Origin: Thermodesulfovibrionia bacterium
GTDB lineage: Bacteria > Nitrospirota > Thermodesulfovibrionia > UBA6902 > BMS3Bbin08
Length of the DNA: 64,000 nt
NCBI GenBank assembly: GCA_030694425.1
Contig: JAUXYI010000063.1
Span: 57,150 to 121,149 of the forward strand
Direction of reading: 5' to 3'
The notes under the pieces were generated by a model. That model ran no database searches and was not told where the DNA came from. It saw nothing but the letters and a program-made list of their open reading frames with translations. Both the position numbers and the translations under genes were made by a program. Positions 8,262 through 32,868 of this stretch are shown here, piece by piece. Positions within the stretch are counted from its first letter, which is position 1. Each line of letters opens with the position of its first letter.

Positions 8262-8269
8262 CGTTCTGT

Positions 8270-8555: not shown

Positions 8556-9134
8556 ATGGCGCATTACATGCATATAAGAGACACTAAAAATATCAAAAAT
8601 GTCACCCTGAACTTGTTTCAGGGTCTAAAAAATGTAGCCGCAAACTTTAGTTTGCGTTTTATTTCGCAGGCTAAAGCCTGCGGCTACACAATTATTATAT
8701 TTTTGTTTCTGCTGTTCACTGTTCACTATTCACTGTTAACCGTCTCTTACGCTGAAACTCCTAACCGTATTATCTCCCTTGCCCGCAGTGTAACGGAGAT
8801 TCTTTTTGCCGCAGGGTTTGGAGATAGAGTCGTGGGCGTAACAAACTTCTGCGACTATCCTCCTGAAGCGAAGCAGAAACCAAAAATCGGGGGCATGTCA
8901 AATCCCTCGCTTGAAGCAGTAGTATCATTAAAACCGGACATCGTTGTATTGACCACTGATGGAAATCCAGAGGAGTTTGAACATAAGCTCCATTCAATGA
9001 AAATAAAAACTCATGTATTCGAAGCAGTTACGCTTCCTGAACTGGCGGATGGTATAAGAAAAATGGGCATTGCCCTTGATGCAAAGGAGAGTTTTAACTC
9101 CCTTGCATCAGGGCGCGGGGCTGTTGCTTCTTGA
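8556..9134 (+). pseudogene. btuF: btuF-like periplasmic B12-binding protein, 3'-truncated remnant
   Basis: Mature-protein homology (ETPNRIISLARSVTEILFAAGFGDRVVGV...) runs about 125 aa and then stops. The reading frame switches at about 9085 into an ABC ATPase C-terminus. Confidence 0.55.
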
Positions 9135-9408
9135 TGAGCCACTTGCAAATCTGGACATAAAATACCAGATAGAACTTCTAAAACTGCTTAAAGAATTGCA
9201 GGAGAAAAGAGAAATAGCGGTTTTGATGGCGCTTCATGATATAAATATTGCCTTGCAGTTTGAAAAGATAATACTAATCAAAGAAGGGAAAGTTCTCAGT
9301 ATTGGTAAGCCTGAAGCGGTGCTGACAGAAGATTTACTTAAGCAGGCATTTGATGTTGTGGTTGAAATTAAAAGACATGACTCAGGAGGAGCGTATATAA
9401 AGTATTAA
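9070..9408 (+). pseudogene. btuD: btuD/fecE-like ABC ATPase, C-terminal fragment only (post-signature, Walker B LLLLDEP, H-loop)
   Basis: Begins right after the ABC signature region. No Walker A and no permease gene. Consistent with a roughly 2 kb deletion fusing btuF to the end of btuD. Confidence 0.55.
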
Positions 9409-11661: not shown

Positions 11662-11693
11662 TCTGCATTCTGTATTCTGTGCTCTGTGTTCTG
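11661..11693. repeat. (TGTTCTG)-type heptamer array, right inverted arm of IVS-protein cassette
   Basis: GTCTGCATTCTGTATTCTGTGCTCTGTGTTCTG is the reverse complement of the 11278 arm. Confidence 0.6.
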
Positions 11694-12475
11694 ATGAGAA
11701 AGATTTTACTCGCATTCCAGTTTTTGACAATTATTCCTGTAAAGGAGATGAAAGATGTCTCTGAGAAAGAGATAGGGGGCGCTTCTGCTTTCTTTCCTTT
11801 AATAGGCTGGATTCAGGGGGCTTTATTTGTGGTATCAGCGGTTTTATTCTTAAAGATTTTCCCTCCAGAATTGGTAAATGGACTTCTTATCCTTGTAATT
11901 GTTACAACCAGCGGCGGTCTTCACCTTGACGGGCTTGCAGATACCTTTGATGCAGTTGCCTCAAAAGGAGATAGGGAAAAGAAGCTTTCTGTTATGAAAG
12001 ACAGCACAATCGGCCCTGTAGGTGTAATTGCGATAGTTCTGGCATTGCTTCTTAAATTCCTTGCCTTGAATAGTCTTTTTCACTATTCACTATTCACTAT
12101 TCACTATTTCTGATGCCTGTTTTTTCGCGATGGGTAATGGTTACAGCAATTTTTCACGGTAAATCAGCAAGACAGGACGGCATTGGAAAGATATTTATTG
12201 AAAATACAAAATTAAAGGAATTAGTGATAGCGACCCTGTTAGTTATTGGCTGCTGGTTATTAGTTGTTAGCTTCTTATTGTCTTCACTATTCACTATTCA
12301 CTATTCACTGTTTTTAGTGTCTATACCTGTACTTTACATCTTCAGTCTCGTATCAGTTTGGTTCTGCAATAAAAAATTTGGCGGTATGACAGGAGATACA
12401 TTCGGGGCGGTTTCCGAAATTTCAGAGATATTATTTTTGATAATGGCGGTAATATGCTCACAAGACTTTATTTAA
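11679..12475 (+). pseudogene. cobS: adenosylcobinamide-GDP ribazoletransferase (cobalamin synthase), split by a frameshift inside a (CACTATT)x4 tract at 12081-12108
   Basis: ORFs 11679..12113 and 12113..12475 together cover the full CobS homology (GLHLDGLADT...MKDS.IG then SRW...GGMTGD). The frame changes exactly within the heptamer array. A 5-copy or 2-copy array would restore the frame. Confidence 0.7.
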
Positions 12476-14903: not shown

Positions 14904-16018
14904 TGATAGAATCAGCCACACTTACATTAGCATATTTCTTAGATCTGGCAATAGGCGACCCGAGATGGCTTCCCCATCCCGTAAGGATTACGGGAAAGGC
15001 TATAACAAAAACTGAAAATTTCTTAAGACGCATAATACAGAATACAAAACACAGAACACAGCCTGCCCCGCTTTGCGGCCTGCCCTGCTTCGCCGAGCGA
15101 GGACAGGGAGCAAGGCCGGGGAACATAGATAACCCCCCAACCCCCCCCATAGCAAAGGGGGGTGAGGGGGGATTTGAAAAACTGGCTGGGATTTTCCTTG
15201 TTTTAATTATAGTAGGATCCACTTATGGATTATTTTTTGTTATTAATTTACTTCTCACTTCTCACTTCTCACTTCTCACTTTTATTTTCCTTGTCTATCT
15301 CATCTCCACTACGCTTGCAACGCATGAGCTTCTGAAATCAGCGCATTCAGTGATTAATGCCTTAAAAGCTGACCATATTGATAATGCAAGAAGAAATCTC
15401 AGTTTCATAGTTGGCAGAGATACTACTCAACTCAGCCGAAAAGACGTATTAAAGGCAACAGTTGAAACCCTTGCTGAAAATGCCTCTGATGGTATAATTG
15501 CCCCTCTTTTTTATTTCTCAATCGGCGGTTTGCCTCTTGCGATGGCGTATAAGGCAATAAACACCCTTGATTCAATGGTTGGATATAAAAATGAAAAATA
15601 TAAAGATTTTGGATGGGCATCAGCACGTCTTGATGACTCCGCAAATTATATACCGGCAAGGATAACAGGAATCCTTATTGTTATTTCATCTGCTATCGTA
15701 TCCCGTTCACTGTTCACTGTTCACTGTTCACTGTCTACAATGCTCCGTGATGGTAGAAATCACTTAAGCCCAAATAGCGGAGTTCCCGAGGCAGCAATGG
15801 CAGGCGCACTCGGCATAAGACTTGGAGGATCATCAAGGTATGGAGGAATAATCGTAGATAAACCATATATTGGGGAGAAAAGACAGATGGATAGAACACA
15901 GAGCACAGACGAAATACATTTAGAAGCTTCTATGAAAGCTGTTACGATTATAAAGGTCACATCTTTTCTTGGATTAGTTAGTGCATTGGCGATTTTATAT
16001 TTGAGGAATAATTTATGA
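14903..16018 (+). CDS. cbiB: adenosylcobinamide-phosphate synthase
   Basis: CbiB/CobD membrane-protein pattern. ATG at 14903 overlaps the cobQ stop (TAATG). Three in-frame insertions. Confidence 0.8.
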   Translation: MIESATLTLAYFLDLAIGDPRWLPHPVRITGKAITKTENFLRRIIQNTKHRTQPAPLCGLPCFAERGQGARPGNIDNPPTPPIAKGGEGGFEKLAGIFLVLIIVGSTYGLFFVINLLLTSHFSLLTFIFLVYLISTTLATHELLKSAHSVINALKADHIDNARRNLSFIVGRDTTQLSRKDVLKATVETLAENASDGIIAPLFYFSIGGLPLAMAYKAINTLDSMVGYKNEKYKDFGWASARLDDSANYIPARITGILIVISSAIVSRSLFTVHCSLSTMLRDGRNHLSPNSGVPEAAMAGALGIRLGGSSRYGGIIVDKPYIGEKRQMDRTQSTDEIHLEASMKAVTIIKVTSFLGLVSALAILYLRNNL

Positions 16019-17271
16019 AAGTACAGAACTCAGAATATAGAATTCAGAATATAGACAAAGCTCCCCTCCCCCTCGCCCCCTCCCGCAAGGGGAGGGGGGT
16101 TAATTTGACACCCTCCCCATTGAAGGGGGAGGGTAAGAGAGGGGGTGATAGTCTGGGTTCTGGGTTCTGTATTCTGAGTTCTGATACAAGTCATGGTGGT
16201 AATATTTACAGGCTTGCAGAGGAACTCGGGTTGCCTGAAAGTAAAATCATTGATTTCAGTGCCTCTATCAATCCCCTCGGTGTTTCAAAAAGAGTGGGGG
16301 ACAAGATTAAAAAAGGGCTGAAAGATTTGTCTCACTATCCAGACCCTGATACCAAAGAATTGAGAGGGAAAATCGCACAATACCATGATATAGAACCAGA
16401 GACGCTACTCTGCGGCAACGGAAGCACCGAATTAATCTATCTTGTACCGAGGGCATTCAAACCTGAAAAGGTTCTTATACCTTCACCTACATTTTCAGAA
16501 TATGAAAGGGCATGCAACTTCAGTAACGAGTTACGAGTTACGAGTTACGAGTTACGGGAAAAAAATAATTTTGATATAAACACAGATACATTTATTCAAA
16601 CTATGGACAAACTTGTCACTCGTCACTCGTCACTTGTCACTGCTGTTATGGCGTTTTTGTGTAATCCGAACAACCCTACAGGAAGGCTTATGAAGAAAGA
16701 AGAAGTATTAAAGATTGCAGAAGCTGCGAAGAAATTAAAATGTCTTTTGATAGTTGATGAGGCTTTTATTGATTTTCATCCAGAGGAATCTGTGATTAAA
16801 GACACTCATGATAATCCTTATTTGATAGTTTTACGGTCAATGACAAAGTTTTATGCACTCACAGGGTTAAGAGTCGGTTATGGGGTCTTCCCCTCTTACC
16901 TCATCAACAAACTAAAAGAATTTAAAGAGCCTTGGACCGTAAATACACTGGCTCAAAAAGCAGCAATGGCAGCACTCGGAGACAATGAATATATAGGTAA
17001 GACCCTCCGGTTAATTAAGAGTGAAAAAGATTTTCTTGAAGGAAGTTTCAGAAAAATAGGTATTGAGTTTTTTCCATCAGATGCCAATTTTTATCTTTTG
17101 AAATTCAATAATGCAAATGAGATAATTCTCTCTCTCCTCAAAAAGGGCATTCTTGTTAGGGATTGCTCAAACTTTAAGGGACTTAATGGGTCATATATCA
17201 GGATTGCAGTCAAATCAAGGGAAGACAATATGCAATTGCTGGAGGAGCTATCTTTATGGCAAAAGGCTTAG
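16015..17271 (+). CDS. cobD: L-threonine-O-3-phosphate decarboxylase (class I/II aminotransferase fold)
   Basis: HGGNIY start motif and PLP-lysine region. The true start may be downstream of the composite repeat. Confidence 0.8.
   Translation: MKVQNSEYRIQNIDKAPLPLAPSRKGRGVNLTPSPLKGEGKRGGDSLGSGFCILSSDTSHGGNIYRLAEELGLPESKIIDFSASINPLGVSKRVGDKIKKGLKDLSHYPDPDTKELRGKIAQYHDIEPETLLCGNGSTELIYLVPRAFKPEKVLIPSPTFSEYERACNFSNELRVTSYELREKNNFDINTDTFIQTMDKLVTRHSSLVTAVMAFLCNPNNPTGRLMKKEEVLKIAEAAKKLKCLLIVDEAFIDFHPEESVIKDTHDNPYLIVLRSMTKFYALTGLRVGYGVFPSYLINKLKEFKEPWTVNTLAQKAAMAALGDNEYIGKTLRLIKSEKDFLEGSFRKIGIEFFPSDANFYLLKFNNANEIILSLLKKGILVRDCSNFKGLNGSYIRIAVKSREDNMQLLEELSLWQKA
16024..16183. mobile_element. composite MITE-like element: inverted (CAGAAYA)n arms flanking two C-rich/G-rich hairpins
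   Basis: Left arm 16024-16056, right arm 16151-16183. Interior is CCCCTCCCCC...GGGGAGGGGGG. Lies in frame at the annotated N-terminus of cobD. Confidence 0.5.
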
Positions 17272-18701
17272 TCATAGCAGGCACACACAGCGGCTGCGGC
17301 AAAACAACCGTGACTCTCGGCATTCTCGCTGCCTTAAAGAAAAAGGGATTGCGTGTGCAGTCATTCAAGGCAGGCCCTGATTTTATAGACTCAGGTCTTC
17401 ACAGACTTATTACAGGCAGGCATTCAAGAAACCTTGATTTGTGGATGTGCGGAGAAGATTATGTCAGTGATTGTTTTTACAGGCATTCCATGGATGCCGA
17501 TATATCGGTGGTGGAAGGGGTTATGGGGCTGTATGACGGGGAATTCAGCACTGCAAGGCTTTCAAGCGTGTTAAACCTGCCTGTTATCCTTGTTGTTGAT
17601 GCCTATGGAATGGCAGAGAGCGCGGGCGCGGTGGTTAAAGGATTTGTCAAATACAGTGACCAGATACAAGTAACGAGTAACGAGTTAAAGAATAAAAAAT
17701 ATTCCGAAGACTCATCACTCGTCACTTGTCACTTATCACTTAATTGGTTAGGTGTTATCTTTAACCGCGTGGCATCTGAGAAACATTATAAACGTCTGAA
17801 AGATAGTGTTCATAACATTTCTGTGTTTGGCTATCTCCCGCGGGAGCTGGATTTTGAAATTCCTCACAGGCATCTCGGGTTAACCGTTGCAGAGGAAAAT
17901 CCCATCACGGTAGAGAACATAGAAAAACTTGCAGATACGGTTTTGAAGTATATAGATGTTGAGACCATAATTCAAAAGACAGGAGACAGGGCACAGAAAA
18001 CAGACAAAGGGGAAAATAGTCTGTCATCTGTGTTCTGTGCCCGGTCTCCTGAAGTTAAAATTGCCGTAGCCTGTGACAGGACATTCTGCTTTTATTACGA
18101 GGATAATCTGGATTTATTAAAAGATGCAGGGGCAGGGATAATAACATTCAGCCTTATTTCTGATACCAAAATTCCTGATAATGTTGATGCCTTATACATT
18201 GGAGGGGGATATCCAGAATTATATGCAAAGGAACTGTCTGAAAATGCATCAATGCTAAAATCCATTAGCGATTGGGCTAATTCATGGAAACCAATATACG
18301 CTGAATGCGGAGGGCTGATGTATCTCTCAAGAGGGATTTATGATTTTGAAGGAAACTTCCACAGAATGGCGCAGGTATTCCCTTTTGAGACGGTTATGAA
18401 AAAAGACAAGGTAAATCTCGGGTATAGAGAAATAAGACTGCTCACTGACTCTATTCTGGGGATACAAGGTGATGTTCTACGGGGCCACGAATTTCACTAT
18501 TCAGAGATAACAGACAGAGCACAGAACACAGAACACAGAACACAGACAAAAAAGATTTACTCAATGAAAGATAACAAGAACTATAATCTTTATAACGAAG
18601 GATACAGATTTAAAAACACTCTTGCAAGTTATGTGCACGTGCATTTCGGTTCAAACCTTAATATTGCCAAAAACTTCGTAAATTTTCTCAGGGAGGCATA
18701 A
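17256..18701 (+). CDS. cbiA: cobyrinic acid a,c-diamide synthase
   Basis: CbiA/CobB pattern. Two in-frame insertions. Confidence 0.9.
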   Translation: MAKGLVIAGTHSGCGKTTVTLGILAALKKKGLRVQSFKAGPDFIDSGLHRLITGRHSRNLDLWMCGEDYVSDCFYRHSMDADISVVEGVMGLYDGEFSTARLSSVLNLPVILVVDAYGMAESAGAVVKGFVKYSDQIQVTSNELKNKKYSEDSSLVTCHLSLNWLGVIFNRVASEKHYKRLKDSVHNISVFGYLPRELDFEIPHRHLGLTVAEENPITVENIEKLADTVLKYIDVETIIQKTGDRAQKTDKGENSLSSVFCARSPEVKIAVACDRTFCFYYEDNLDLLKDAGAGIITFSLISDTKIPDNVDALYIGGGYPELYAKELSENASMLKSISDWANSWKPIYAECGGLMYLSRGIYDFEGNFHRMAQVFPFETVMKKDKVNLGYREIRLLTDSILGIQGDVLRGHEFHYSEITDRAQNTEHRTQTKKIYSMKDNKNYNLYNEGYRFKNTLASYVHVHFGSNLNIAKNFVNFLREA

Positions 18702-19771
18702 TGGATGCAATACTTCTTATAGGACATGGAAGCAGGCTGTCAGAGGCAAACAATGCGCTTAAACAGGTTGCTTCTATGGTGAAAGATTTAGGAAACGTTC
18801 CTTTGGTTGAAACAGCATTTTTACAGTTTGCAAAGCCTGATTTTTTTGAGGCTGTCTCTACATGCGTTTCAAGCGGAGCCAGGAAGATAATTGTACACCC
18901 CTATTTCCTTTATAAAGGGAGGCACTTTGAGGAAGACCTTACTGAAATGGTTGGTAAAGCACGGAAAAGATATTCAGATATTGAGTTTATCCTTACAGAA
19001 CCCCTCGGTGTACACGAAAACATCGCAAAGGTTGTCCTTGAAAGGTCAATGAAAGACATCAAACCAGTGAAAATACTTAAACCGCATGAGATAGAGGAGA
19101 AGAGTTTTGAGATAATCACCAGAGAGATGGGGAAGACAGACTTCAGGGATATTGAGACGCCGATAGTAAAAAGGGTGATACATGCAACGGGAGATTTTGA
19201 CTTTGCCAAAAACATGCGTTTTCACTCTGATGCAGTGGAGGTAGGAATTAAAGCAATAAAAAAGGGAATGGATATTCTGGTGGACGTAAAAATGGTTGAG
19301 GCGGGGATAAACAAGAGATTACTTCAGAAATGGAGAGGGAAAGTCATATGTAAAATTCAGAACACAGAACACAGACTACAGACTACAGATAACCCCCCCA
19401 TCCCACCCTTAAATAAGGGGGGGATGGGGGGGGTTACAGAAAGGGGGGGTGAGGGGGAATTTGAGACCGATACCCAAACGAGAGCGGAACAGGGAATTGA
19501 ATCAGCAGTTAAAGAAAACAATAACATCGGCATTGTTGCAATAGGTAATGCACCTACAGCTCTCTACAGGACAATGAAGTTAATAAGAGATAATGGTTTT
19601 AACCCTGAGCTTGTGGTAGGCGTGCCTGTCGGTTTTGTCAAGGCAGTTGAATCAAAAGAGGTTCTTTTGCATATGGAATATCCTTTTATAACATCACTGG
19701 GAAGAAAGGGTGGAAGTACAGTTGCAGCGGCAATTGTAAATGCATTATTGAAAATAGCGGAAGGGGGGTGA
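18701..19771 (+). CDS. cbiXC: fusion of sirohydrochlorin cobaltochelatase (CbiX small type) with precorrin-8X methylmutase (CbiC)
   Basis: N-terminal 125 aa is CbiX-like (ILLIGHGSR). The remainder is CbiC (HATGDFDF...GNAPTALY). In-frame insertion at 19355-19470. Confidence 0.7.
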   Translation: MDAILLIGHGSRLSEANNALKQVASMVKDLGNVPLVETAFLQFAKPDFFEAVSTCVSSGARKIIVHPYFLYKGRHFEEDLTEMVGKARKRYSDIEFILTEPLGVHENIAKVVLERSMKDIKPVKILKPHEIEEKSFEIITREMGKTDFRDIETPIVKRVIHATGDFDFAKNMRFHSDAVEVGIKAIKKGMDILVDVKMVEAGINKRLLQKWRGKVICKIQNTEHRLQTTDNPPIPPLNKGGMGGVTERGGEGEFETDTQTRAEQGIESAVKENNNIGIVAIGNAPTALYRTMKLIRDNGFNPELVVGVPVGFVKAVESKEVLLHMEYPFITSLGRKGGSTVAAAIVNALLKIAEGG

Positions 19772-19829
19772 TAAATAAAAAGTTCAAAAATGGGAAGTAA
19801 GAAGCAGAAATAAAAAAATCAAGGGAATA

Positions 19830-19980
19830 AAAACGAGGAAAGGGGTGAGAATCCCCTGCTGTCCCGCAGCCGTAAAGGGAACGAAAACCCAACAGAAGTC
19901 ACTGTGCCGAATCTTCGACATGGGAAGACGGGTAAGTAGGCAGCCCTGAGCCGGAAGACCGTTTGTTCCCGCAACCTCGA
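19830..19980 (+). promoter_or_regulatory. cobalamin riboswitch (variant)
   Basis: GTGAGAATCC, CCCGCAGCCGTAAAGGGAA, GTCACTGTGCC, GGGAAGACGG, GCCGGAAGACCG. Upstream of the outer-membrane protein / cbiMNQO block. Confidence 0.55.
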
Positions 19981-19996
19981 CGGAAGGAGAAAAAAA

Positions 19997-20782
19997 ATGA
20001 TTAAGAAAGTTTTTACAATGATTGTAATCGTATTATGGTATGGAGCGGCGTTTGCTGCTCACCCGCTTATAACTGATGACACCGGGTCACAGGGCAAAGG
20101 GAAATTATTGATTGAGATGAATAGTGAATTCACACATAACAAAGAAACAGAAGAAGATGTAATCATCAAAGAGACCGGCGGTGAGGTGGCAGCAATACTG
20201 TCCTACGGAATTACAGACAATGCAGATATTGTTTTGGGACTTCCGTATCAATGGTCAAAAACTAAAGAAGATGGAGAAACGACCTCGGACGAGGACGGCG
20301 TATCAGATATGTCTTTGGAAATCAAATGGAGGTTTTTTGAAAAAGAAGGTTTAAGCCTCGCGTTAAAACCGGGGCTTACTCTGCCCACAGGCGATGAAGA
20401 AAAAGGATTAGGCAATGGAAGGGCGTCATACGGGCTTAATTTCATAACAACAAAAGAGGTTAAGCCGTGGGCATTTCATCTTAATGTTGCCTATACACAT
20501 AATGAATATAAATTGGAAGCAGACAAAGATGCCAATAGGAAAGACATATGGCATGTATCCCTTGCGACCGAAGTAGAGGTTGTAAAAAATCTCAGACTTG
20601 TTGCAAACGCCGGTATGGAAAGGAATGCCAATAAGGAATTACATACACATCCTGCATTTATTCTCGGAGGGTTTATATATTCTGTATCAGAAAGGCTTGA
20701 TGTGGATTTCGGCGTCAAAGCCGGAATTAATAAATCTGAAACAGACTATACAATTCTTGCAGGACTTGCGAGGAGGTTTTAA
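19997..20782 (+). CDS. outer-membrane beta-barrel protein (MetA-pathway/transporter-like family)
   Basis: Signal peptide and alternating amphipathic strands. Confidence 0.45.
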   Translation: MIKKVFTMIVIVLWYGAAFAAHPLITDDTGSQGKGKLLIEMNSEFTHNKETEEDVIIKETGGEVAAILSYGITDNADIVLGLPYQWSKTKEDGETTSDEDGVSDMSLEIKWRFFEKEGLSLALKPGLTLPTGDEEKGLGNGRASYGLNFITTKEVKPWAFHLNVAYTHNEYKLEADKDANRKDIWHVSLATEVEVVKNLRLVANAGMERNANKELHTHPAFILGGFIYSVSERLDVDFGVKAGINKSETDYTILAGLARRF

Positions 20783-21547
20783 ATGAAAAATGAAAAATCA
20801 TCCCGAATAAGTCGGGACAAAATTCTTTTACTTGTCACTTGTTACTTGTCACTTGTCACTGACGCGCATGCTATGCATATTTCAGAAGGCATTTTGCCGT
20901 TCAACTGGGCAGCCTTATGGTTTGCGGTTGCATTACCCTTTGTCGCTTATGGCTTATACAGGTTAAAAAAACTTTCTGCTGTTGACCTGTCGTTCAAGCC
21001 GCTCGTCGGCCTTATGGCTGCGATAGTGTTTGTAATATCCTGCATGCCGATTCCTGTGCCAACAGCAGGGACATGTTCCCATCCTGGAGGTACGGCAATT
21101 CCGGCAATATTGGTTGGTCCCTCTATTAGTGTTCTCGTTACAGCAGTTGCGCTTCTTATTCAGGCTCTTTTTCTTGCTCACGGCGGATTGAGCACCTGGG
21201 GAGCAGATATAGTCTCCATGGGAGTGATGGGAGCTTTTACAGGTTTTGCTGTCTTTAGGCTCCTGAGAAGATTTAATTTGAGCCTTGCAGTCTCAGGATT
21301 CTTTGCGGGTATCCTTTCTGACTGGGCTATATATCTCACAACCTCTGTTCAGCTCGCATCAGGCATAAGAGGTGATGAGCCTTTTACGCCGCTATTTACA
21401 AAGATAGTCATTGCCTTTGTTCCAACACAGCTTCCGCTTGGCATCCTTGAGGGAGCCATGACAGCAGGCATGGTCGTACTGCTTTACAAAAAGAGACCTG
21501 ACTTGCTTGTGAAGATGAAGGTATTAAAGCCAGAGGAGGCAATATGA
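20783..21547 (+). CDS. cbiM: cobalt ECF transporter S component
   Basis: AHA then MHISEGILP. The N-terminal leader is built from a minihairpin and a (CTTGTCA)n repeat. Confidence 0.85.
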   Translation: MKNEKSSRISRDKILLLVTCYLSLVTDAHAMHISEGILPFNWAALWFAVALPFVAYGLYRLKKLSAVDLSFKPLVGLMAAIVFVISCMPIPVPTAGTCSHPGGTAIPAILVGPSISVLVTAVALLIQALFLAHGGLSTWGADIVSMGVMGAFTGFAVFRLLRRFNLSLAVSGFFAGILSDWAIYLTTSVQLASGIRGDEPFTPLFTKIVIAFVPTQLPLGILEGAMTAGMVVLLYKKRPDLLVKMKVLKPEEAI

Positions 21548-21978
21548 AAAAACAGATTGGTTTGGCGGGATTTTTCAGACGCATTTTCGTCATTCCGCAC
21601 TTGATGCGGAATCCAGTCTTTTTTCTGGATTCCCGCTTTCGCGGGAATGACGCCTATCGGAACAGGATACACTATGGAATAACCATTTTAATTTTATCTG
21701 TTCTCGTCACTTGTCACTTCTCACTTGTCACTGCCGCCGAGTGGGGTGGTGTTGACGAATCAGTTGTGGAGAAATATGCAAAGGAGCACGGCAGGGAGGC
21801 AAGAGAGCCCTTGATAAACACTGATCAGGGAGACTTGCTTCTATTTGTGTTTTTGCTCGCAGGCGCCATCGGAGGATTTGCAGCGGGGTATTACTGGAGG
21901 GTGCTGACAGAGAACAGAGCAGAAAGCAGTAAAAACAGAACAAACACTTACGAGCCTTTAGCTCAAAAAAAGGAGTAG
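21544..21978 (+). CDS. cbiN: cobalt transport protein CbiN
   Basis: ATGA overlap with cbiM. C-terminal TDQGDLLLFVFLLAGAIGGFAAGYYW. A palindromic repeat is inserted in frame near the N-terminus. Confidence 0.7.
   Translation: MKKQIGLAGFFRRIFVIPHLMRNPVFFLDSRFRGNDAYRNRIHYGITILILSVLVTCHFSLVTAAEWGGVDESVVEKYAKEHGREAREPLINTDQGDLLLFVFLLAGAIGGFAAGYYWRVLTENRAESSKNRTNTYEPLAQKKE
21588..21650. repeat. GTCATTCCGC...GCGGGAATGAC palindromic element (RFRGND / VIPAKAGIQ-type), in frame in cbiN
   Basis: Read directly. Antisense spurious ORF at 21484..21672. Confidence 0.5.
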
Positions 21979-22055
21979 AAATATAATCCCCTTTCCCCCC
22001 TTTTCTAAAAGGGGGGAAAGGGGGGACTTGAAAACCGTTTTCGGAGCAAAGACAA

Positions 22056-22823
22056 ATGGAAATTTTTTCTGAGCATTTTAACAAAGACAACTTTCTCTCA
22101 AAAATCGACGTGAAGGTGAAGTTGCTCGTTGTACTCTCACTTTTGGTGATGGTGCTGAGTTGCACAAAAATCTTTTTCCCTATACTCATTGCTATGGGCT
22201 GTTTTTTGCTTTGCCTGAAAATGAAAATAGCGCCGCGTGTGCTGCTTCTGAGAATGGCACAGCCTTTATTTTTTGCGTTAGTGATTTTATTGCTGAAGCT
22301 CTTTTTTTCCGGCAAAGACACTATGTTTTCCATCTCACTTCCGACTTCTGACTTCTCACTTCTCACTTTGACAGGTCACAGAGACGGACTCATTGAAGGG
22401 TTAAAGATCACAAGCAGAATACTCGGCGGGGTATCGCTTGTAATGGCATTTGGATTTGCCACACCTTTTGCCGAAATCCTTGCAGGACTTTCATGGCTCA
22501 GGCTGCCGAAGCAGTTCATTGAAATAACAATGTTTGCCTACAGATATATTTTCATGTTTCTTGAAGATGCGCACACTATCTACAATGCGCAGAAAAATCG
22601 TCTTGGTTATTCGGGAATGAGAAAAGGCATGAAGTCCTTCGGCACACTTGCAGGTTCGCTCGTGATAAGGGGATTTGACCAGAGCCAGAAGACATCCGAG
22701 GCAATGATCCAACGCGGATACACAGGGGATATGCCTATGATAGATGGAAGACCATTGAGATTCGGTGAAGTCTTTTTTGCTGCGATATTCGTGTTTTTTG
22801 CAGGTGCAGTATGGATGATTTAA
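22056..22823 (+). CDS. cbiQ: cobalt ECF transporter T component
   Basis: CbiQ pattern. In-frame (CTTCTCA)n at 22340-22375. Confidence 0.8.
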   Translation: MEIFSEHFNKDNFLSKIDVKVKLLVVLSLLVMVLSCTKIFFPILIAMGCFLLCLKMKIAPRVLLLRMAQPLFFALVILLLKLFFSGKDTMFSISLPTSDFSLLTLTGHRDGLIEGLKITSRILGGVSLVMAFGFATPFAEILAGLSWLRLPKQFIEITMFAYRYIFMFLEDAHTIYNAQKNRLGYSGMRKGMKSFGTLAGSLVIRGFDQSQKTSEAMIQRGYTGDMPMIDGRPLRFGEVFFAAIFVFFAGAVWMI

Positions 22824-23788
22824 AAAGAACACAGAACACAGAACACAGACTAAAGACTAAAGATAACCCTCCCATCCCCTCCTTATTTAAGGGGGGGCAA
22901 AGGGGGGTTACCGCAAAGGGAAGTGAGGGGGGATTTAGGAATGCTTTGTCGGTTGAGAAACTCTCATACAAGTACCCTGACGGGACGTCTGCGTTGACTG
23001 ATATTACCTTTAATGTAAGGAAAGGTAAGTTTATCGGACTGCTTGGAGCAAACGGCTCCGGGAAAACAACGCTTCTTCGCGCGATGGATGGACTTATGAA
23101 GAACTTTGAAGGCGGTGTTTATCTGGAAGGGATTGATATAAGAAAGCTCACGCCGAAGCAGATTTACAAAAAGATCGGGCTTGTGTTTCAAAACCCCGAT
23201 GACCAGCTCTTTGCGCCCACTCTCTTTGAGGATGTTGCCTTCGGTCCTTTGAATATGGGTTTTGACGCAGGAGAAGTTAAGAAAAGGGTATTAAATGCCT
23301 TAAATGAAGTTGAGCTTACAGGTCTTGAAAAAAAATCCGTTCACAATCTGAGCTTTGGTCAGAGGAAGCGCGCGTGCATCGCAGGACTTCTTGCGATGGG
23401 ACATGAAATGCTTTTGCTTGATGAACCGACAGCGGGGCTTGACCCGATGGGCGAATACAGGATGATGAAGCTGCTTCAGAAATTGAACAAAGAAAACGGC
23501 GTGACAATTGTCATGGCGACTCACAGCGTGGACCTTGTGCCTCTTTTTCTTGATGAGCTTTACATCCTGAGTAAAGGCAGAATCACAAGAGGCGGCACAC
23601 CGGAGGAGGTGTTTAATGCGCCTGAAGATATGTCAAATGTTAAACTCAGGCTTCCCCACATCGCAGAGCTGATTTATAAACTGAAGCATGAAGATAAACT
23701 GGACTTTGAACGTATTCCCCTCACTATTGGTGAGGCAAGAAGGGAGATCCTGAAAATATATACATACAGAAAAGGTGATGGAAGATGA
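22811..23788 (+). CDS. cbiO: cobalt ECF transporter ATPase
   Basis: Walker A GANGSGKTT, signature LSFGQRKR, Walker B LLLDEP. N-terminal 40 aa derive from a heptamer array plus a C/G hairpin. Confidence 0.85.
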   Translation: MDDLKRTQNTEHRLKTKDNPPIPSLFKGGQRGVTAKGSEGGFRNALSVEKLSYKYPDGTSALTDITFNVRKGKFIGLLGANGSGKTTLLRAMDGLMKNFEGGVYLEGIDIRKLTPKQIYKKIGLVFQNPDDQLFAPTLFEDVAFGPLNMGFDAGEVKKRVLNALNEVELTGLEKKSVHNLSFGQRKRACIAGLLAMGHEMLLLDEPTAGLDPMGEYRMMKLLQKLNKENGVTIVMATHSVDLVPLFLDELYILSKGRITRGGTPEEVFNAPEDMSNVKLRLPHIAELIYKLKHEDKLDFERIPLTIGEARREILKIYTYRKGDGR

Positions 23789-24586: not shown

Positions 24587-25858
24587 GTGAGTATGACTAA
24601 AATTCATGTCATAGGCATTGGCTATAAACCACTTGATAAAGGTGCAAGGGAAGTTATCTTGAATTCATCAGTCATCCTTGCGTCCAACAGGCTTTTTGAA
24701 GTTTTTCAGGGATATAAGGAATATGAAAAAGTGAAAGATAAAGTAAAAGTGATAAACAATGTAGATGAGACAATAAAATTCATTCACTCGTCACTCGTTA
24801 CTCGTCACTCGTCACTCATCACACTTCTTGCCTCCGGAGACCCGCTTTTTTTTGGTATCGGTAGAAGGGCTGTGAGAGAATTTGGAAAAGACATCGTGAA
24901 AATACTGCCTGATCTATCATCTATTCAGATGGCATTTGCAAAGATAAAAGAACCGTGGGATGATGCATTCCTCATGAGCCTTCATGGCGGCCCTGACCCG
25001 ACAAAAAGAAGGAAGCTGAAATATGAACTAAGTGACATTTCTGAACTACTCGCTAAACATAATAAAATTGCTATCCTGACTGACAAAGAAAATAACCCTC
25101 AGAAGATTGCACAGGTTCTTAACTTGTCACTTGTCACTCGTCACTCGTCACTTATTATGTTTGTCTGTGAACGGCTCGGTTATCCTGATGAGAAAATAAC
25201 AGAAGGAACACCTGAGGAAATTACAAAGATAGAGTTTTCAGACCCAAATGTTGTGATAATTCAGAGCACAGAACACAGAACACTTAACACAGACTTAAAA
25301 TTTGGATTAACAGAAAGCGAAATTCTTCATTCTAAGGGACTCATAACAAAGGACGAGGTCAGAGCTGTAACAATTCAAAAATTAAGGCTCCCGCAAAAGG
25401 GCATATTCTGGGATATTGGTGCTGGCTCTGGATCAGTATCAATAGAAGTAGCAAGGCTTTATCCTGAATTAAAAGTTTTTGCCATCGAAAGAGACGAAGA
25501 ACAGGTTAATCATATCAAGGAAAACATGATTAGACGCAACACATCTAATATTGAAATAATAAAAGGTGATGCCCCTGAAACCCTGGCAAATCTTCCACAT
25601 CCGGACAGAGTATTTATAGGAGGAAGCGGTGGAAGGATTAAAGAGATAATAGAATTTGTGAGCAATAAGATATCGTCTGGAGTCATCGTAATAAATGCCA
25701 CTACAATAGAGACACTGAATGGGGCAGTTCAACATCTTGAGAACAATGCATTTAATGTGGGAGTCTCTGAAATTTCTGTTTCCAGAGCAAAAACCGTGGG
25801 TGGCAAAAGACACATGAGTGCTTTAAATCCTGTATTTATTATAACAGGAGAAAGATAG
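24587..25858 (+). CDS. cbiET: precorrin-6Y C5,15-methyltransferase (decarboxylating), CbiE-CbiT fusion
   Basis: N-terminal methylase domain plus C-terminal SAM methyltransferase (DIGAGSGS). Three in-frame insertions. Confidence 0.85.
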   Translation: MSMTKIHVIGIGYKPLDKGAREVILNSSVILASNRLFEVFQGYKEYEKVKDKVKVINNVDETIKFIHSSLVTRHSSLITLLASGDPLFFGIGRRAVREFGKDIVKILPDLSSIQMAFAKIKEPWDDAFLMSLHGGPDPTKRRKLKYELSDISELLAKHNKIAILTDKENNPQKIAQVLNLSLVTRHSSLIMFVCERLGYPDEKITEGTPEEITKIEFSDPNVVIIQSTEHRTLNTDLKFGLTESEILHSKGLITKDEVRAVTIQKLRLPQKGIFWDIGAGSGSVSIEVARLYPELKVFAIERDEEQVNHIKENMIRRNTSNIEIIKGDAPETLANLPHPDRVFIGGSGGRIKEIIEFVSNKISSGVIVINATTIETLNGAVQHLENNAFNVGVSEISVSRAKTVGGKRHMSALNPVFIITGER

Positions 25859-26685: not shown

Positions 26686-27437
26686 GCAAGGTCTATTTCA
26701 TAAGTGCAGGGCCTGGCGCCCCTGAGTTAATAACAATCAAGGGTAGAAAACTCCTTGATAATGCCAATGTAGTAATTTATGCAGGAAGCCTTGTGAATCC
26801 TGAACTCTTAAACAACATAAAGGCAGAAATATTTGATTCGTCAAAACTTACCCTCAATGAAATAATAAAGATTATAAAAGACTCAATAGATAAAGATAAG
26901 ATGGTTGTAAGGCTGCACACAGGTGACACCTCTTTATACAGTGCCATATCAGAGCAGATAGAAAGGCTCCGCGAATTGAACATAGATTATGAAGTCATTC
27001 CAGGGGTTTCTTCTGCAATGGCCGGTGCAGCAATACTGGGACAGGAACTCACCATTCCTGAGATAAGCCAGACTGTCATATTTACACGCCTTGAAGGAAG
27101 GACTCCTGTACCTGAAACCGAAAAGCTCAGTGAGTTGGCTAAACACAAAGCAACGATGGTGATATTTTTGAGTGCAGGAATGAGTGAAAAGTTAAGAGAC
27201 GAATTACTAAAAAGCTATCCAGAAGATACGCCTGTGGTGATAATTGAGAAGGTATCCTGGCCGGAACAGAAAATTATAAGAGGCAGACTAAAAAATATTG
27301 TTGAATTGATTAAAACTGCCAATATAAAAAGGACTGCACTTATATATGTTGGTGAGGCTTTAAGGGCATCGGAAGAATCGTTGGGCAAAAAATCAAAGCT
27401 CTACAACAAAGACTTTACACATGAATACAGAAAATAA
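26682..27437 (+). CDS. cbiF: precorrin-4 C11-methyltransferase
   Basis: VYFISAGPGAPELITIKG. No insertion. Confidence 0.85.
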   Translation: MSKVYFISAGPGAPELITIKGRKLLDNANVVIYAGSLVNPELLNNIKAEIFDSSKLTLNEIIKIIKDSIDKDKMVVRLHTGDTSLYSAISEQIERLRELNIDYEVIPGVSSAMAGAAILGQELTIPEISQTVIFTRLEGRTPVPETEKLSELAKHKATMVIFLSAGMSEKLRDELLKSYPEDTPVVIIEKVSWPEQKIIRGRLKNIVELIKTANIKRTALIYVGEALRASEESLGKKSKLYNKDFTHEYRK

Positions 27438-29301
27438 AGGCAACAAGACAGAAGTCAGAAGTCAGCCTTCAGCCTTATTTTACATAACAGACAAGGGACT
27501 TATGCTTGCCAAAAAGCTCAAAGAACTTTTCCCTAATTCACAGATGGTGAAATTTAAATCAGAGGCTGTTTCTGAGGTCTGGAGCGAGTGCAAAAATCTA
27601 ATATTCATCATGGCAGCAGGAATTGTTGTCAGGACTATCGCCCCCTTAATAAAAGGCAAAAGGACAGATCCTGCTGTTGTTGTGCTGGACGAGAAAGGGG
27701 AATATGCAATCAGCCTTTTAGGTGGACATCTTGGAGGTGCAAATAAGATTGCAAAGGAGATTGCTGATTTCTTAGGAGGCAGAGCGGTAATAACAACAGC
27801 ATCTGATGTAAATAATCTGCCAGCCATAGATTTATGGGCAAGAGAAAATAATTTAGTGGTAGAAAATTGGGATTTGCTGCCGAAAATTGGTACGCTGCTT
27901 TTAAACAAGGGTTTTTTGAAAGTCTATGCGGATATAGGTATTAAATTGACTGACAAATTACAAAAAACAGACAATCCTGAAACTGCTGACATCCTTATTA
28001 CAAACAAAAACAACCTGTTTGCTCATACACCCATTCATCTTTATTTAAGACCCAAAAATCTTATTATTGGTATTGGCTGTAACAGCGGAACATCAGCAGA
28101 TGAAATAGAAGACGCTGTTAAAAGTATACTGGCGGAAAACAATCTATCATTTCTATCGGTTTACTCCATAGCGACCATTGATAAAAAAAGCAGCGAGCCT
28201 GGTCTGATTGCATTCACTGAAAAGTATGGTTTTAAGGTTAAAACGTTCACATCCGACGAACTGAATAATGTCAAAGGTGTAGTGAAATCAGAAGCTGCAT
28301 TCAAAGCAACTGGAGCCAAAGCAGTAGCAGAGCCAGCAGCATTACTCGCATCAGGAGCAAAGAAACTGCTTGTGCCAAAACAAAGGATAGGAAATGTCAC
28401 GATAGCAATAGCACTCAAAGGCAGTAACGAGTTACAAGTAACAAGTAACAAGTTAAAAAATAAAGGCTCGTCACTCGTCACTCGTCACTCGTCACTTTAC
28501 ATCGTTGGCACTGGCCCGGGAAGCATTGAACATATTACGCCTTATGCCCAAAATGCAATAAGAAACTCCGATGTTATAGTTGGATACGGCACATATCTTG
28601 AACTAATACAGGAGTTAATTAAGGATAAAGAAGTCGTATCCACAGGCATGACGCAGGAGATAGACAGATGTAAAAGAGCAGTGGAACTGGCAATGTCAGG
28701 AAAAACCGTTTCTATCATAAGTGGTGGAGACCCTGGTATCTATGCCATGGCAGGATTGGTGTTTGAAATATTGAAAAACAGTAACGAGTTACAAGTAACA
28801 AGTAACAAGTCAGTAGAGAGTCGGGAGTCAAAAAACTCGTCACTCGTCACTCGTCACTCGTCACTTATTGATGTTGAGGTTATTCCCGGTATTTCTGCCT
28901 TAAATGCCTGTGCAGCAAGGCTCGGTGCGCCACTCATGCATGATTTTGCATGCATAAGTCTTTCTAACAGGCTTACGTCTTGGGATTTGATAGAAAAAAG
29001 ACTTGAGGCCGCTACAACGGCTGATTTTGTGATTGTGCTTTATAACCCAAAGAGCATGGGCAGGCAGGGGCATATCAATAAGGCAAGGGATATCATCTTG
29101 AGATATAGAACTCCTGAAACACCTGTGGGAATAGTAAAGTCTGCAATGAGGGAGAACGAAAAAATAATCATTACAAATCTTAAAGACATGCTTGACCACG
29201 ATATTGATATGCAGAGCACGGTAATTATCGGGAATTCGCAAACATTTTTATGGGAAGGGTGGATGATAACACCGAGGGGATATGCAAACAAAAAACAGTG
29301 A
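27421..29301 (+). CDS. cbiGH: CbiG fused in frame to precorrin-3B C17-methyltransferase CbiH
   Basis: CbiG homology to about aa 340. A repeat insertion at 28425-28500 replaces the cbiH start. Then LYIVGTGPG...GGDPGIY. Confidence 0.8.
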   Translation: MNTENKGNKTEVRSQPSALFYITDKGLMLAKKLKELFPNSQMVKFKSEAVSEVWSECKNLIFIMAAGIVVRTIAPLIKGKRTDPAVVVLDEKGEYAISLLGGHLGGANKIAKEIADFLGGRAVITTASDVNNLPAIDLWARENNLVVENWDLLPKIGTLLLNKGFLKVYADIGIKLTDKLQKTDNPETADILITNKNNLFAHTPIHLYLRPKNLIIGIGCNSGTSADEIEDAVKSILAENNLSFLSVYSIATIDKKSSEPGLIAFTEKYGFKVKTFTSDELNNVKGVVKSEAAFKATGAKAVAEPAALLASGAKKLLVPKQRIGNVTIAIALKGSNELQVTSNKLKNKGSSLVTRHSSLYIVGTGPGSIEHITPYAQNAIRNSDVIVGYGTYLELIQELIKDKEVVSTGMTQEIDRCKRAVELAMSGKTVSIISGGDPGIYAMAGLVFEILKNSNELQVTSNKSVESRESKNSSLVTRHSSLIDVEVIPGISALNACAARLGAPLMHDFACISLSNRLTSWDLIEKRLEAATTADFVIVLYNPKSMGRQGHINKARDIILRYRTPETPVGIVKSAMRENEKIIITNLKDMLDHDIDMQSTVIIGNSQTFLWEGWMITPRGYANKKQ

Positions 29302-30751
29302 CGAGTTACGAGTAACGAGTAACAAGTCAGTAAAGAGTCGGGAGTCAAAAAACTCGTCACTCGTCACTCGTCACTCGTCACTTAAAAATGATGTTGCCTT
29401 TTTGTGGGATGAGTCTCTTCTATGGGGATTAATGGCATATAAGGCATTGAAGTCACGTAACCTGCCTTTTAATATTATTCGTTCTGCTGATATTAAAAAC
29501 AGGCAACTCAAAAATTACAAAATGCTATTTGTCCCTGGTGGATGGGCATCAAATAAGCTAAAGGCTCTCGGTAAAAAGGGCATCACTGAGATAAAAAGAT
29601 TTGTCAGAGGCGGAGGCAATTACCTCGGTCTTTGCGGCGGTGCAGGGCTTGCAACTCAGGAGAGTGTAGGACTCTTAAATGTCAGGAGAAGACCTACAAA
29701 GAACCGCGTCCCGAGCTTCAGCGGGAAGATATATCTAAATATAAGTGAGCATCCTATCTGGAATGGTTTGGTTGGAGGAAACAGCAATGAAAATAGTGCA
29801 AATACGGTAATTCAAAATAACTCATCACTCATCACTCCCCGGCCTCGTCCCGAAGCGTCGGGACGGGGCGGGCATTACTCGTCACTGCCTTTTCATGCCT
29901 GGTGGCCATCGCAATTTTTAGTAGAGGATAAGGGTATAAAGGTACTTGCTATATTTGGAGGCGCCTTACCGGATTCTTTCAGCTCTGACCTAAATATCGG
30001 GGATGTAGAGGCAGATGGCAGTTGGGCTGAACTTGAAAAAATCTATAAGATAAATCTTAATCCTGAAAAACTTATAAACGAGCCTGCTGTTCTGGAAGGC
30101 AGTTATGGACTTGGTAAAGTAATTTTATCACTTATCCATTTTGATACCACTCAGGACAGGAATGGTGCTGAGGTTTTAAAAAATCTATGGGAATATCTCG
30201 CAGGACAGAAGACAGAAGTTAGGAAGATAAGAAATTGGGAAGATAAGAGCCTCTCAACTTCTCAACTTATAGGCTCCAAAACAAACCTGTCACTGCTCAA
30301 GGAACTTGAAATGTTAGTTGATGAGTTGATTTCCCTCGGCGAACGGAATTTCCTCTGGTTCTGGCGAAACCCAATGCTTCTTCAGTGGCGGAGGGGAGTA
30401 AGGGGGCTTGAATACTGCACGCTGTATGTGATGATAAAAGAGATTACCGCAATACTTAAAAATGGACAAGTAGCGAAAGCCAGGGGACAAAGAAACATTG
30501 AATTATTAATTGGAGATAGCTTGGGGAGAATCAGGAGATTGCTTATACCATTTATAGAAAAAACCAAACGCTTACTAATCATGGAAAGGTATGCCTTACA
30601 GAATGGACATATCACCTATGAGAGATGTGATAGTCCAGAGATTCAGAAATTAAGGTGTGAACTTTTCTCCACCTCAAAAAGCCATGGAGGATTGTTCAAA
30701 AAACTTATTGATGAAGTGGACAAAGTTTTGTATAGTTTGTTGATTAACTAA
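29282..30751 (+). CDS. class-I glutamine amidotransferase-like (BPL_N-type) domain protein
   Basis: LFVPGGWASN...GGGNYLGLCGGAGLA. N-terminus sits in a repeat element. Second insertion at 29815-29890. Confidence 0.35.
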   Translation: MQTKNSDELRVTSNKSVKSRESKNSSLVTRHSSLKNDVAFLWDESLLWGLMAYKALKSRNLPFNIIRSADIKNRQLKNYKMLFVPGGWASNKLKALGKKGITEIKRFVRGGGNYLGLCGGAGLATQESVGLLNVRRRPTKNRVPSFSGKIYLNISEHPIWNGLVGGNSNENSANTVIQNNSSLITPRPRPEASGRGGHYSSLPFHAWWPSQFLVEDKGIKVLAIFGGALPDSFSSDLNIGDVEADGSWAELEKIYKINLNPEKLINEPAVLEGSYGLGKVILSLIHFDTTQDRNGAEVLKNLWEYLAGQKTEVRKIRNWEDKSLSTSQLIGSKTNLSLLKELEMLVDELISLGERNFLWFWRNPMLLQWRRGVRGLEYCTLYVMIKEITAILKNGQVAKARGQRNIELLIGDSLGRIRRLLIPFIEKTKRLLIMERYALQNGHITYERCDSPEIQKLRCELFSTSKSHGGLFKKLIDEVDKVLYSLLIN

Positions 30752-32509: not shown

Positions 32510-32563
32510 TTGTAGCCGCAGACTTTAGTCGGCGTTCTTAAACTGTGATTGACAGTTCAAATA

Positions 32564-32778
32564 GGTATTCCAGAGGAATCTCGTGAAAAACGAGAACTGC
32601 CCCGCAACTGTAAAGGGAGCGAAAACCTAAAAAGGCAGTGAAGAGTAAACAGTGAATAGTTAAGAGTTACAGAATTCAAAAACTTTTAACTTTCAACTGC
32701 TTTTAAGTCACTGTCCCGAAGCGTCGGGACGGGAAGGCAGGTGAGTAGAGAGCCCTAAGTCAGGAGATTCCGAATACC
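32564..32778 (+). promoter_or_regulatory. cobalamin riboswitch with no downstream gene (orphan)
   Basis: P1 GGTATTC...GAATACC. GTGAAAAACGAG, CCCCGCAACTGTAAAGGGAGC, GGGAAGGC, AGTCAGGAGA. Next plus-strand product is only a 6-aa ORF. Confidence 0.6.
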
Positions 32779-32868
32779 TTTTAAAAACCAATACCCTTCG
32801 AGGGAAGAGGAGGCAACATGAGAAATAACACATCGTAAAATTAGTCAATCCAAACGCATAGATAAAGT

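Follow-up and report, generated by a model that had tools for sequence, protein, structure and literature searches.

Heptanucleotide arrays as the probable filling of an ancestral CbiM signal peptide, and as apparently tolerated in-frame elements, in a cobalamin gene cluster of a Thermodesulfovibrionia bacterium

Results

Anatomy of the cbiM leader

The window analyzed here is a 64,000-nucleotide stretch of a Thermodesulfovibrionia metagenome-assembled genome (MAG) from a groundwater bacterium (contig JAUXYI010000063.1, assembly GCA_030694425.1), and between 8.5 and 31 kb its plus strand carries a cobalamin biosynthesis and uptake cluster. Three cobalamin riboswitches were identified in the window (8260-8466, 19794-19981, and 32513-32788), the second of which heads an operon comprising, in order, an outer-membrane barrel gene (19997-20782), cbiM (20783-21547), a cbiN-like gene (21544-21978), cbiQ (22056-22823), and cbiO (22811-23788). 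Our subject is the 30-codon leader of cbiM (20783-20872), most of which is repeat DNA, together with the related repeat elements found in neighboring genes. Period-7 arrays were located with Tandem Repeats Finder (TRF), domains with Pfam and NCBIfam, and RNA with Rfam; feature coordinates are collected in Table 1.

The cbiM open reading frame (ORF) opens with MKNEKSSRISRDKILLLVTCYLSLVTDAHA, followed by MHISEG. Its leader is composed of an A-rich (AAATGAA)2.6 mini-array, a minihairpin, a short spacer, and an (ACTTGTC)4.4 array, and closes with TDAHA. A first-pass annotation had assigned the entire 30-residue leader to the minihairpin and a (CTTGTCA)n array; both elements are present, and its coordinates were right within a few bases, but the mini-array also contributes and TDAHA is not repeat DNA. 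The minihairpin pattern has 7 copies in the window against 0.01 expected, and the CTTGTCA dimer, with at most 2 mismatches, has 35 against 0.39 expected; the leader repeats are not a chance pattern. Further, 2 intergenic copies of the minihairpin (56918 and 61961) have an array of A-rich heptamers on one side and one of T-rich heptamers on the other, the same layout as in the cbiM leader.

Three candidate features of the leader were rejected. Folding of the leader block is no better than that of shuffled sequence (z = 0.16), which removes a palindrome formed from its A-rich and T-rich arrays of the kind seen in the linker elements described below. A promoter within the array (TTGTCA-17-CATATT) gave hits not above shuffled expectation, and its transcription start would fall after the ATG. 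A second ATG at 20790 in the (AAATGAA) array, considered as a rescue of a +1-unit slip, meets a TAA in the hairpin loop after 6 codons.

Probable export and cleavage of the CbiM leader

We identified a net charge of +3 in the n-region, MKNEKSSRISRDK, and a best 10-residue Kyte-Doolittle mean of 2.36 in the h-region, ILLLVTCYLSLV, against a mean of 2.5 in relatives, both as expected of a Sec signal; the array-coded part of the h-region has a mean hydropathy of 2.05-2.36. A-H-A stands directly before Met31, placing small residues at -3 and -1 as in signal peptidase I sites. Sequence inspection revealed no Shine-Dalgarno (SD) sequence or purine-rich stretch ahead of Met31, and leader ATGs of CbiM relatives have SD sites equivalent to that of ATG 20783. 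The protein matches CbiM family models (Pfam PF01891, 180 bits; NCBIfam NF006184, 260 against a cut-off of 180; TIGR00123, 195 against 184), and its MHISEGILP, beginning at query residue 31, aligns with residue 1 of PDB chains 5X3X_M and 4M58_A. In CbiM and NikM, the free NH2 group of Met1 coordinates the metal, Met1 and His2 form the metal site, the N-terminus is extracellular, and a single extra N-terminal residue abolishes transport (PMC3945884). Since the free Met1 amine binds metal outside the membrane, a translated leader would have to be removed exactly between AHA and M, the cut predicted by the -3/-1 pattern. The earlier proposal of a cleavable signal peptide ending in AHA just before MHI is thus upheld by the SD, the A-x-A of relatives, and the structures starting from MHI, and we infer that the repeat-coded leader is almost certainly a translated, cleavable signal peptide of Sec type.

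CbiM relatives were the 120 closest database proteins (70-87% identity). Leaders of 8-56 residues ending right at MHISEGILP were present in 118 of these, and the frame was open with a K/R-rich n-region in 118. Position -1 was Ala and position -3 was A, V, S, or T in all 118 leaders, with mainly His or Tyr at -2. Across 64 genomic loci, both Ala positions of A-x-A use all four Ala codons; A-x-A is kept while its codons vary, which therefore argues for selection on the peptide and not on the DNA. Two apparently leaderless or short-leader relatives that were checked (P0027 and P0101) reflect gene-caller choices, as the DNA has in-frame leaders with an SD.

Origin and turnover of CbiM leaders

An A-x-A leader before MHI was found at every CbiM locus recovered, including those of Geobacter, Syntrophobacterales, and Acidobacteria, and heptamer arrays were absent from CbiM leaders outside the Nitrospirota-type clade. 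Because these repeat-free outgroups have A-x-A leaders, the signal peptide is ancestral and the arrays are secondary; the comparison indicates that arrays overwrote a pre-existing leader and supplied no new signal peptide.

The n-region arrays of relatives are (AAAATTC)n, (AGTCAAA)n, or (CTTCAAA)n, coding peptides like the KFKIQNS of (AAAATTC)n, and their T-rich h-region arrays include units of CTTGTCA (coding LVTCHLS), CTGTTCA (LFTVHCS), and CTGCTTA (LLTAYCL). Over 119 CbiM leaders, period-7 identities numbered 437, compared with 159-320 at periods 5, 6, 8, and 9, and about half of these leaders had a recognizable heptad core, with at least 5 unit types. Unit types differ even among proteins with mature parts at least 88-90% identical, and the leaders of P0126 and P0128 differ by exactly VHCSLFT, that is, 3 units, in frame. 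The hairpin peptide SSRISRDK is common to the leaders of the window and of relative P0121. The same architecture was recovered in dozens of independent MAGs from different studies and in Dissulfurispira thermophila, an isolate with a 2.4 Mb genome contig (P0041), whose CbiM leader is MKIQGSRFKIQNALIFVLSLIILHLSLVTEANA. These comparisons indicate that CbiM leaders turn over much faster than the mature protein and yet stay charged, then hydrophobic.

In some relatives (loci L006 and L014; P0047), the leader n-region holds the 65-nt type of multi-hairpin element that is inserted in the window cbiN, coding VIP..., RFRGND, or AGMT-like peptides. An internal ATG of this element may give the cbiM of relatives a new start (MTSLM..., MTMFRY...).

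Heptamer-coded segments in CbiN, CbiQ, and BtuF

Homologues of the cbiN-like gene adjoin cbiM in 68 loci. Across the clade, the CbiN-like proteins start with MK[VI]Q[NS]SKFK and continue into a first transmembrane segment (TM1) such as LLFTVHCSLFT or LLVTCHSSLVT; in the window, part of TM1 is coded by a (GTCACTT)3.9 array. Arrays were also identified in cbiQ and in btuF (Table 1). The window btuF is truncated, covering Pfam Peripla_BP_2 positions 1-110 of 235. Homologues of btuF were absent from the cbiM-centered loci, and BtuF relatives were collected by a separate protein search; among the 118 full-length relatives, 59 had the same xT.H.SLxT heptad core as the window gene, ending in SYA immediately before E. 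The first-pass annotation had placed an array in the hydrophobic core of the btuF leader; a (CTGTTCA)3.7 array does code that core, but the gene is a pseudogene remnant with no functional leader now. Taken over the CbiM and BtuF leaders and CbiN TM1, heptamer-coded hydrophobic cores recur across Thermodesulfovibrionia.

In the region 8556-9408, only the 5' half of btuF is present, and it runs straight into the 3' end of a gene for an ATP-binding cassette ATPase (btuD/fepC-like, 9070-9408). This arrangement implies that a deletion removed the permease gene, downstream of the intact cobalamin riboswitch at 8260-8466.

Elements near the N-termini of cbiO, cobD, and the 29282 ORF

The N-termini of cobD, cbiO, and the ORF at 29282-30751 had been thought to begin inside repeat elements. 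This did not hold, as the ancestral starts, which overlap the stop of the preceding gene, are kept and the elements stand in frame just downstream, spanning codons 4-55 of cobD, 5-45 of cbiO, and 5-34 of the 29282 ORF, with the start codons outside. Many lineages carry unrelated inserts between the cbiO start and the conserved RLSV/LSVEKL; insert length was a multiple of 3 with an open frame in 17 of 18 lineages, including the window, whereas untranslated inserts would be expected to do this in about one third of cases. In the remaining lineage, L078, a new ATG has evolved immediately ahead of LSVEKL. The cobD ATG overlaps the cbiB stop (ATGA) and is preceded by a GAGGA SD; in relatives, 2-8 residues precede HGGN. 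From the element to HGG, the window offers no further in-frame start codon (ATG, GTG, or TTG). Relatives of the 29282 ORF have 9-27 variable residues before FLWDES, one of them including KFKIQSSK. Judged by sequence comparison, these 3 elements look like translated in-frame insertions that are tolerated and not recruited.

The cbiG-cbiH junction

We identified cbiG and cbiH as a single ORF (27421-29301), with CbiG_C ending at about residue 331, TP_methylase beginning at residue 359, and a palindromic composite element as the linker. It is one of 7 dispersed, near-identical copies of an (AGTAACG)n-(ACTCGTC)n composite in the 64 kb. The 2 genes are also fused in L004, L011, L018, L021, L024, and L038, through linkers that vary in length and sequence, two of them with other repeat elements and three (L018, L021, and L024) without repeats; L045, L047, L050, L037, and L058 have cbiG and cbiH as separate genes, divided by a stop and a start. 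Since relatives are fused through other linkers, the fusion is older than, or independent of, the window element. The earlier suggestion that the element fused the genes therefore stands insofar as there is a single ORF with the element as its linker, but the element need not have caused the fusion, as 6 relatives are fused otherwise. Sequence comparison points to the linker as a permissive landing site for the element.

The (AGTAACG)n-spacer-(ACTCGTC)n composites at 28415-28505, 28772-28872, and 29290-29390 are imperfect palindromes, one arm of which shows systematic G-to-A differences. Fold z-scores of the linker element were -5.3 on the plus strand and -9.6 on the minus strand, the minus-strand RNA reaching -41 kcal/mol via G-U pairs compared with -19 kcal/mol for the coding strand. 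In L005 (16843-16852) and L007 (12989-12998), the frame shifts at the cbiG-cbiH junction, where cbiH has no start and the matches are only 9 nt apart, which reflects either a fusion with a frameshift or an error of sequencing.

Array population and encoded peptides

Approximately 45 period-7 arrays were identified at 2.5-30 kb, typically of about 31 nt or 4.4 units; most measured 27-39 nt (3.7-5.6 units), with a mode near 31 nt. Inside ORFs lay 35 of 38 arrays at 2.5-30 kb of the window and, over 1.3 Mb comprising the window and related loci, 104 of 112 (~93%), compared with a coding fraction of 0.90. On the Kyte-Doolittle scale, peptides coded by the window arrays averaged +0.79 in membrane or exported hosts (CbiM, CbiN, CbiQ, CobS, CbiB, and the BtuF leader) versus -0.74 in soluble enzymes (Mann-Whitney p = 0.001). 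Array hydropathy tracks the membrane or exported versus soluble nature of the host, which therefore indicates selection on the translated product. In soluble hosts, units contain CG, such as ACTCGTC coding SLVTRHS, whereas in membrane segments they contain TG or TT.

Orthologous sites in CbiC, CbiE/T, CbiA, and CbiH hold arrays of differing units in many genomes (window positions 19358-19389, 25122-25153, 18514-18546, and 28780-28865), among them loci L001, L004, L007, L011, L014, L016, L023, and L024. In one example, KVICKIQ is followed by NTEHR, ESGVRSQ, GSGARGQ, or KTEDRRQ. Such variation points to hotspots of insertion or to units being turned over in place. Array density falls sharply past ~31 kb, where the few period-7 arrays (47.6, 56.8, 60.5, and 61.9 kb) are very AT-rich, and at least the arrays on either side of the 56.9 and 62.0 kb hairpins are intergenic, in contrast to the intragenic arrays packing the cobalamin cluster. 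Further, the third riboswitch match (32513-32788) spans 276 nt, compared with 188-207 nt for the other two, and contains, at 32714-32729, an TCCCGAAGCGTCGGGA minihairpin, which has heptamer-like flanks; a repeat element appears to have inserted inside this riboswitch.

Table 1. Repeat elements and associated features of the cobalamin cluster, in window coordinates
Feature	Position	Strand	Basis and content
(CTGTTCA)3.7 array in truncated btuF (8556-9134)	8712-8737	+	TRF; codes LFTVHYSLL in hydrophobic core of leader
Arrays and two G/C-rich hairpins after codon 3 of cobD (threonine-phosphate decarboxylase, ORF 16015-17271)	16025-16183	+	TRF
Cobalamin riboswitch, operon head	19794-19981	+	Rfam RF00174, 71.9 bits (gathering score 31.5)
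Shine-Dalgarno GAGGAGG	20770-20776	+	Read from sequence; 6 nt before ATG 20783, in 3' end of barrel gene
(AAATGAA)2.6 mini-array	20781-20798	+	TRF; holds ATG 20783, codes MKNEK of n-region
Minihairpin TCCCGAATAAGTCGGGA (TCCCGA-ATAAG-TCGGGA)	20801-20817	+	Codes SRISR, two Arg of n-region
(ACTTGTC)4.4 array	20830-20860	+	TRF; codes LLVTCYLSLVT, h-region of CbiM signal peptide
c-region T-D-A-H-A with predicted signal peptidase I site Ala30/Met31	20858-20872	+	Sole non-repeat part of leader
Mature CbiM from MHISEG	20873-21547	+	Pfam CbiM from residue 32, NCBIfam models from residue 31
cbiN-like small membrane protein gene	21544-21978	+	ORF; weak NCBIfam CbiN match (E 0.005); ATG overlaps cbiM stop (ATGA)
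65-nt multi-hairpin palindromic element, in frame, N-terminal region of cbiN (VIPHLMRNPVFFLDSRFRGND)	21588-21652	+	Inverted repeats I7, I8, I11, I13
(GTCACTT)3.9 array	21706-21732	+	TRF; codes VTCHFSLVT, part of CbiN TM1
Hairpin element with perfect 17-bp stem, cbiN-cbiQ spacer, untranslated	21988-22023	.	Inverted repeat I1, 100% complementary
(TCTCACT)5 array in cbiQ	22333-22372	+	TRF; codes ISLPTSDFSLLTL, hydropathy +1.05
cbiO start MDDL, overlapping cbiQ stop	22811-22822	+	Motif M[ED][DN][ILMV] of relatives overlaps cbiQ stop
Composite element after cbiO codon 4: (AGAACAC)3.4, (AGACTAA)2.4, hairpin 22864-22910, G-rich tail	22826-22945	+	TRF, inverted repeat I2
Palindromic composite (AGTAACA)4.4, spacer, (CTCGTCA)4.3, CbiG-CbiH linker	28423-28496	+	TRF, alignment of 7 copies
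Composite element as in CbiG-CbiH linker, at about codon 5 of ORF 29282-30751	29297-29382	+	TRF, alignment

Discussion

We consider it likely that, as a whole, the data are best explained by an ancestral CbiM signal peptide filled by arrays, with in-frame elements tolerated elsewhere. The genome would carry many short heptanucleotide arrays and small hairpins, mostly intragenic, that persist where the encoded peptide is tolerated. Translation from ATG 20783 would yield a 30-residue Sec signal peptide whose Lys/Arg n-region derives from the A-rich mini-array and the minihairpin, whose h-region derives from (ACTTGTC)n, and whose TDAHA c-region is ordinary conserved sequence. As translation passes through a 7-nt unit in each of the three frames, (ACTTGTC)n always codes the heptapeptide LVTCHLS. 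Signal peptidase I would cut after AHA, exposing Met1-His2 with a free amine outside the membrane for cobalt. A signal peptide requires no more than charge and hydrophobicity, and arrays would for this reason have overwritten the interior of the leader repeatedly. CbiN TM1 and the BtuF leaders would follow the pattern of the CbiM leader, while the elements of cbiO, cobD, the 29282 ORF, and the CbiG-CbiH linker would be in frame, translated, and probably neutral, at permissive junctions. The broader claim that repeat DNA was recruited as functional coding sequence is thus retained for the signal cores (CbiM, BtuF clade-wide, and CbiN TM1) but not beyond them, the leader being ancestral and the N-terminal insertions apparently tolerated. 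Anatomy, conservation, frame preservation, and hydropathy filtering are shown by the sequences, whereas translation, cleavage, and the way in which arrays arise are inferred.

Several points weigh against this explanation. NCBI annotates the window CbiM from Met31 (P0001, 224 aa) and leaves out the 30-codon leader, a choice probably explained by CbiM family models that begin at MHI. Leaderless CbiM is functional in other bacteria (5X3X starts at MHI), and initiation at Met31 is thus possible. The h-region includes Cys, Tyr, Ser, and Thr, and its hydrophobicity is only moderate. The cbiO TTG at 22949 and the L078 ATG show that downstream starts can evolve.

Alternatively, the leader array might act as an opa-type phase-variation switch, in which slippage in unit number moves the start codon into or out of frame, turning CbiM export, or other array-bearing genes, on and off; we think this improbable. 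The unit, at 7 nt, is not a multiple of 3, the (ACTTGTC)4.4 array is a non-triplet tandem repeat in a leader-coding region, P0126 and P0128 document an in-frame 3-unit length polymorphism, and the CTCTT leader repeats of opa are an exact precedent (PMC3960869). Elsewhere in the window, cobS (11679-12475) is split into 2 ORFs exactly at a (TTCACTA)4.3 array (12079-12108), the first matching Pfam CobS positions 1-114 and the second positions 118-207, and a change of +1 unit or -2 units would restore a single ORF of 260-267 aa; the split could be a real frameshift or off state, or else an error of the MAG consensus. The arrays are short, however, at 3-5 units compared with 4-12 in the opa tracts cited. 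Longer opa tracts are also known. Among the consensus sequences of the 120 relatives, no leader was out of frame, and neither was any in about 75 CbiM loci scanned, 4 of which lacked an in-frame ATG, 2 of these having an in-frame GTG; the apparent exceptions P0027 and P0101 are in frame. In the consensus sequences, the state is ON throughout. Strain-level variants were sought in metagenome contigs by exact 26-mer matching, and none was found.

An untranslated leader, with CbiM starting at Met31 and the repeat block serving as a 5' untranslated or intercistronic element that works through DNA or RNA, seems to us very doubtful. The 224-aa NCBI protein from MHI and the leaderless CbiM of other organisms would fit it, and the TTGTCA hexamer in the array resembles a -35 box. 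It is contradicted by the strong SD before ATG 20783 and its absence before Met31, by the conservation of A-x-A as amino acids with synonymously varying codons, by the open frame and K/R-rich n-region in 118 of 120 relatives, and by a fold z of 0.16 with promoter-like matches not above shuffled expectation. De novo creation of the signal peptides, of the N-termini, and of the gene fusion by the elements has a very low probability in our judgment, even though repeat DNA makes up all of the n- and h-region of the window CbiM leader and all of the CbiG-CbiH linker and a signal peptide derived from a miniature inverted-repeat transposable element (MITE) has been proposed for Yersinia YPO1552 (PMC2229807). 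The comparative data largely refute it: outgroup leaders lack repeats, the start codons of cbiO, cobD, and the 29282 ORF are conserved and lie upstream of the elements, and non-repeat linkers fuse cbiG and cbiH in L018, L021, and L024. Finally, the window comes from a MAG and cobS is frameshifted at an array, but an assembly or binning artefact is scarcely credible given preserved frames and the same architecture in dozens of independent MAGs and the D. thermophila isolate genome.

A further-reaching version of the array-filled leader can be offered only tentatively, and we hold it to be unlikely. An active process would seed and renew arrays of about four heptanucleotide units throughout Thermodesulfovibrionia coding DNA, furnishing a fast-evolving, interchangeable supply of n- and h-regions, transmembrane segments, and linkers, and B12 genes would gain a heritable on/off switch through unit-number slippage like that in cobS. 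Because the same heptapeptide results in every frame, T-rich units with a YACT core would be ready hydrophobic cores and A-rich units would be Lys/Gln/Asn-rich segments.

Among known systems, Neisseria opa genes likewise have a tandem repeat not a multiple of 3 (CTCTT) in the signal-peptide coding region, translated in the leader (PMC3960869; 10.1101/2020.09.16.300947). The opa tracts are, however, longer (4-12 units) and hypervariable, frequently lie out of frame, and switch surface antigens of a pathogen on and off, whereas the arrays described here have 3-5 units, are always in frame in the consensus, change unit sequence between relatives, and occur in housekeeping cobalt/B12 uptake genes of free-living anaerobes. 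Rickettsia palindromic elements and the enterobacterial MITEs, including enterobacterial repetitive intergenic consensus sequences and the Yersinia palindromic element YPAL, are also small dispersed palindromes translated in frame in conserved genes, and YPAL has been proposed as part of the YPO1552 signal peptide (PMC2229807). Those elements are non-tandem and 100-170 bp long, and their signal-peptide cases are hypothetical proteins. In the present elements, heptamer arrays form the arms, and the transporters that bear the signal peptides are well characterized and need precise cleavage.

The short tandemly repeated repetitive sequences of cyanobacteria, GGGAATC of Xanthomonas and Nostoc, and GGGACCG x4 of Geobacter metallireducens share the 7-nt unit, the preference for about four units, and the dispersal (PMC4692102; PMC2700814). 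The four-unit elements of G. metallireducens lie within and between genes (PMC2700814). Heptamer repeats of Xanthomonas and Nostoc avoid coding regions (PMC4692102), in contrast to the present arrays, which are not mostly intergenic (104 of 112 in ORFs). The present arrays also differ from such heptanucleotide simple sequence repeat families in their AT-rich to mixed composition and in having their translation filtered by protein context. Borg tandem repeats are likewise fast-evolving, inside ORFs, and kept in frame by selection, and they create intrinsically disordered regions (PMC9879509). In the Thermodesulfovibrionia arrays, by comparison, the 7-nt unit runs through all three reading frames and gives a 7-residue peptide period. 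Borg units in ORFs are reportedly multiples of 3 nt. As a CbiM/NikM S component of group-I energy-coupling factor transporters, the mature window protein is ordinary, with an MHI start, and only the make-up of its leader is unusual. We found no description in the open-access papers searched of heptamer arrays in Nitrospirota or Thermodesulfovibrionia, or of such arrays as signal-peptide cores there.

The array-filled CbiM leader would mean that, throughout a whole bacterial class, signal peptides of essential transporters can have non-triplet, microsatellite-like DNA as their working core; the principle, so far familiar chiefly from phase-variable opa genes in pathogens, would thereby be extended. 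For annotation, it means that model-based start calling truncates such leaders; since the calls for P0027 and P0101 are similarly truncated, model-led calling probably biases the CbiM family as a whole. The clade offers a repeat system living mostly inside genes, with a cultured member in D. thermophila, and its interest would be higher if array generation proved to be an active system. Its CbiM leaders constitute a natural experiment on how little sequence information signal peptides need.

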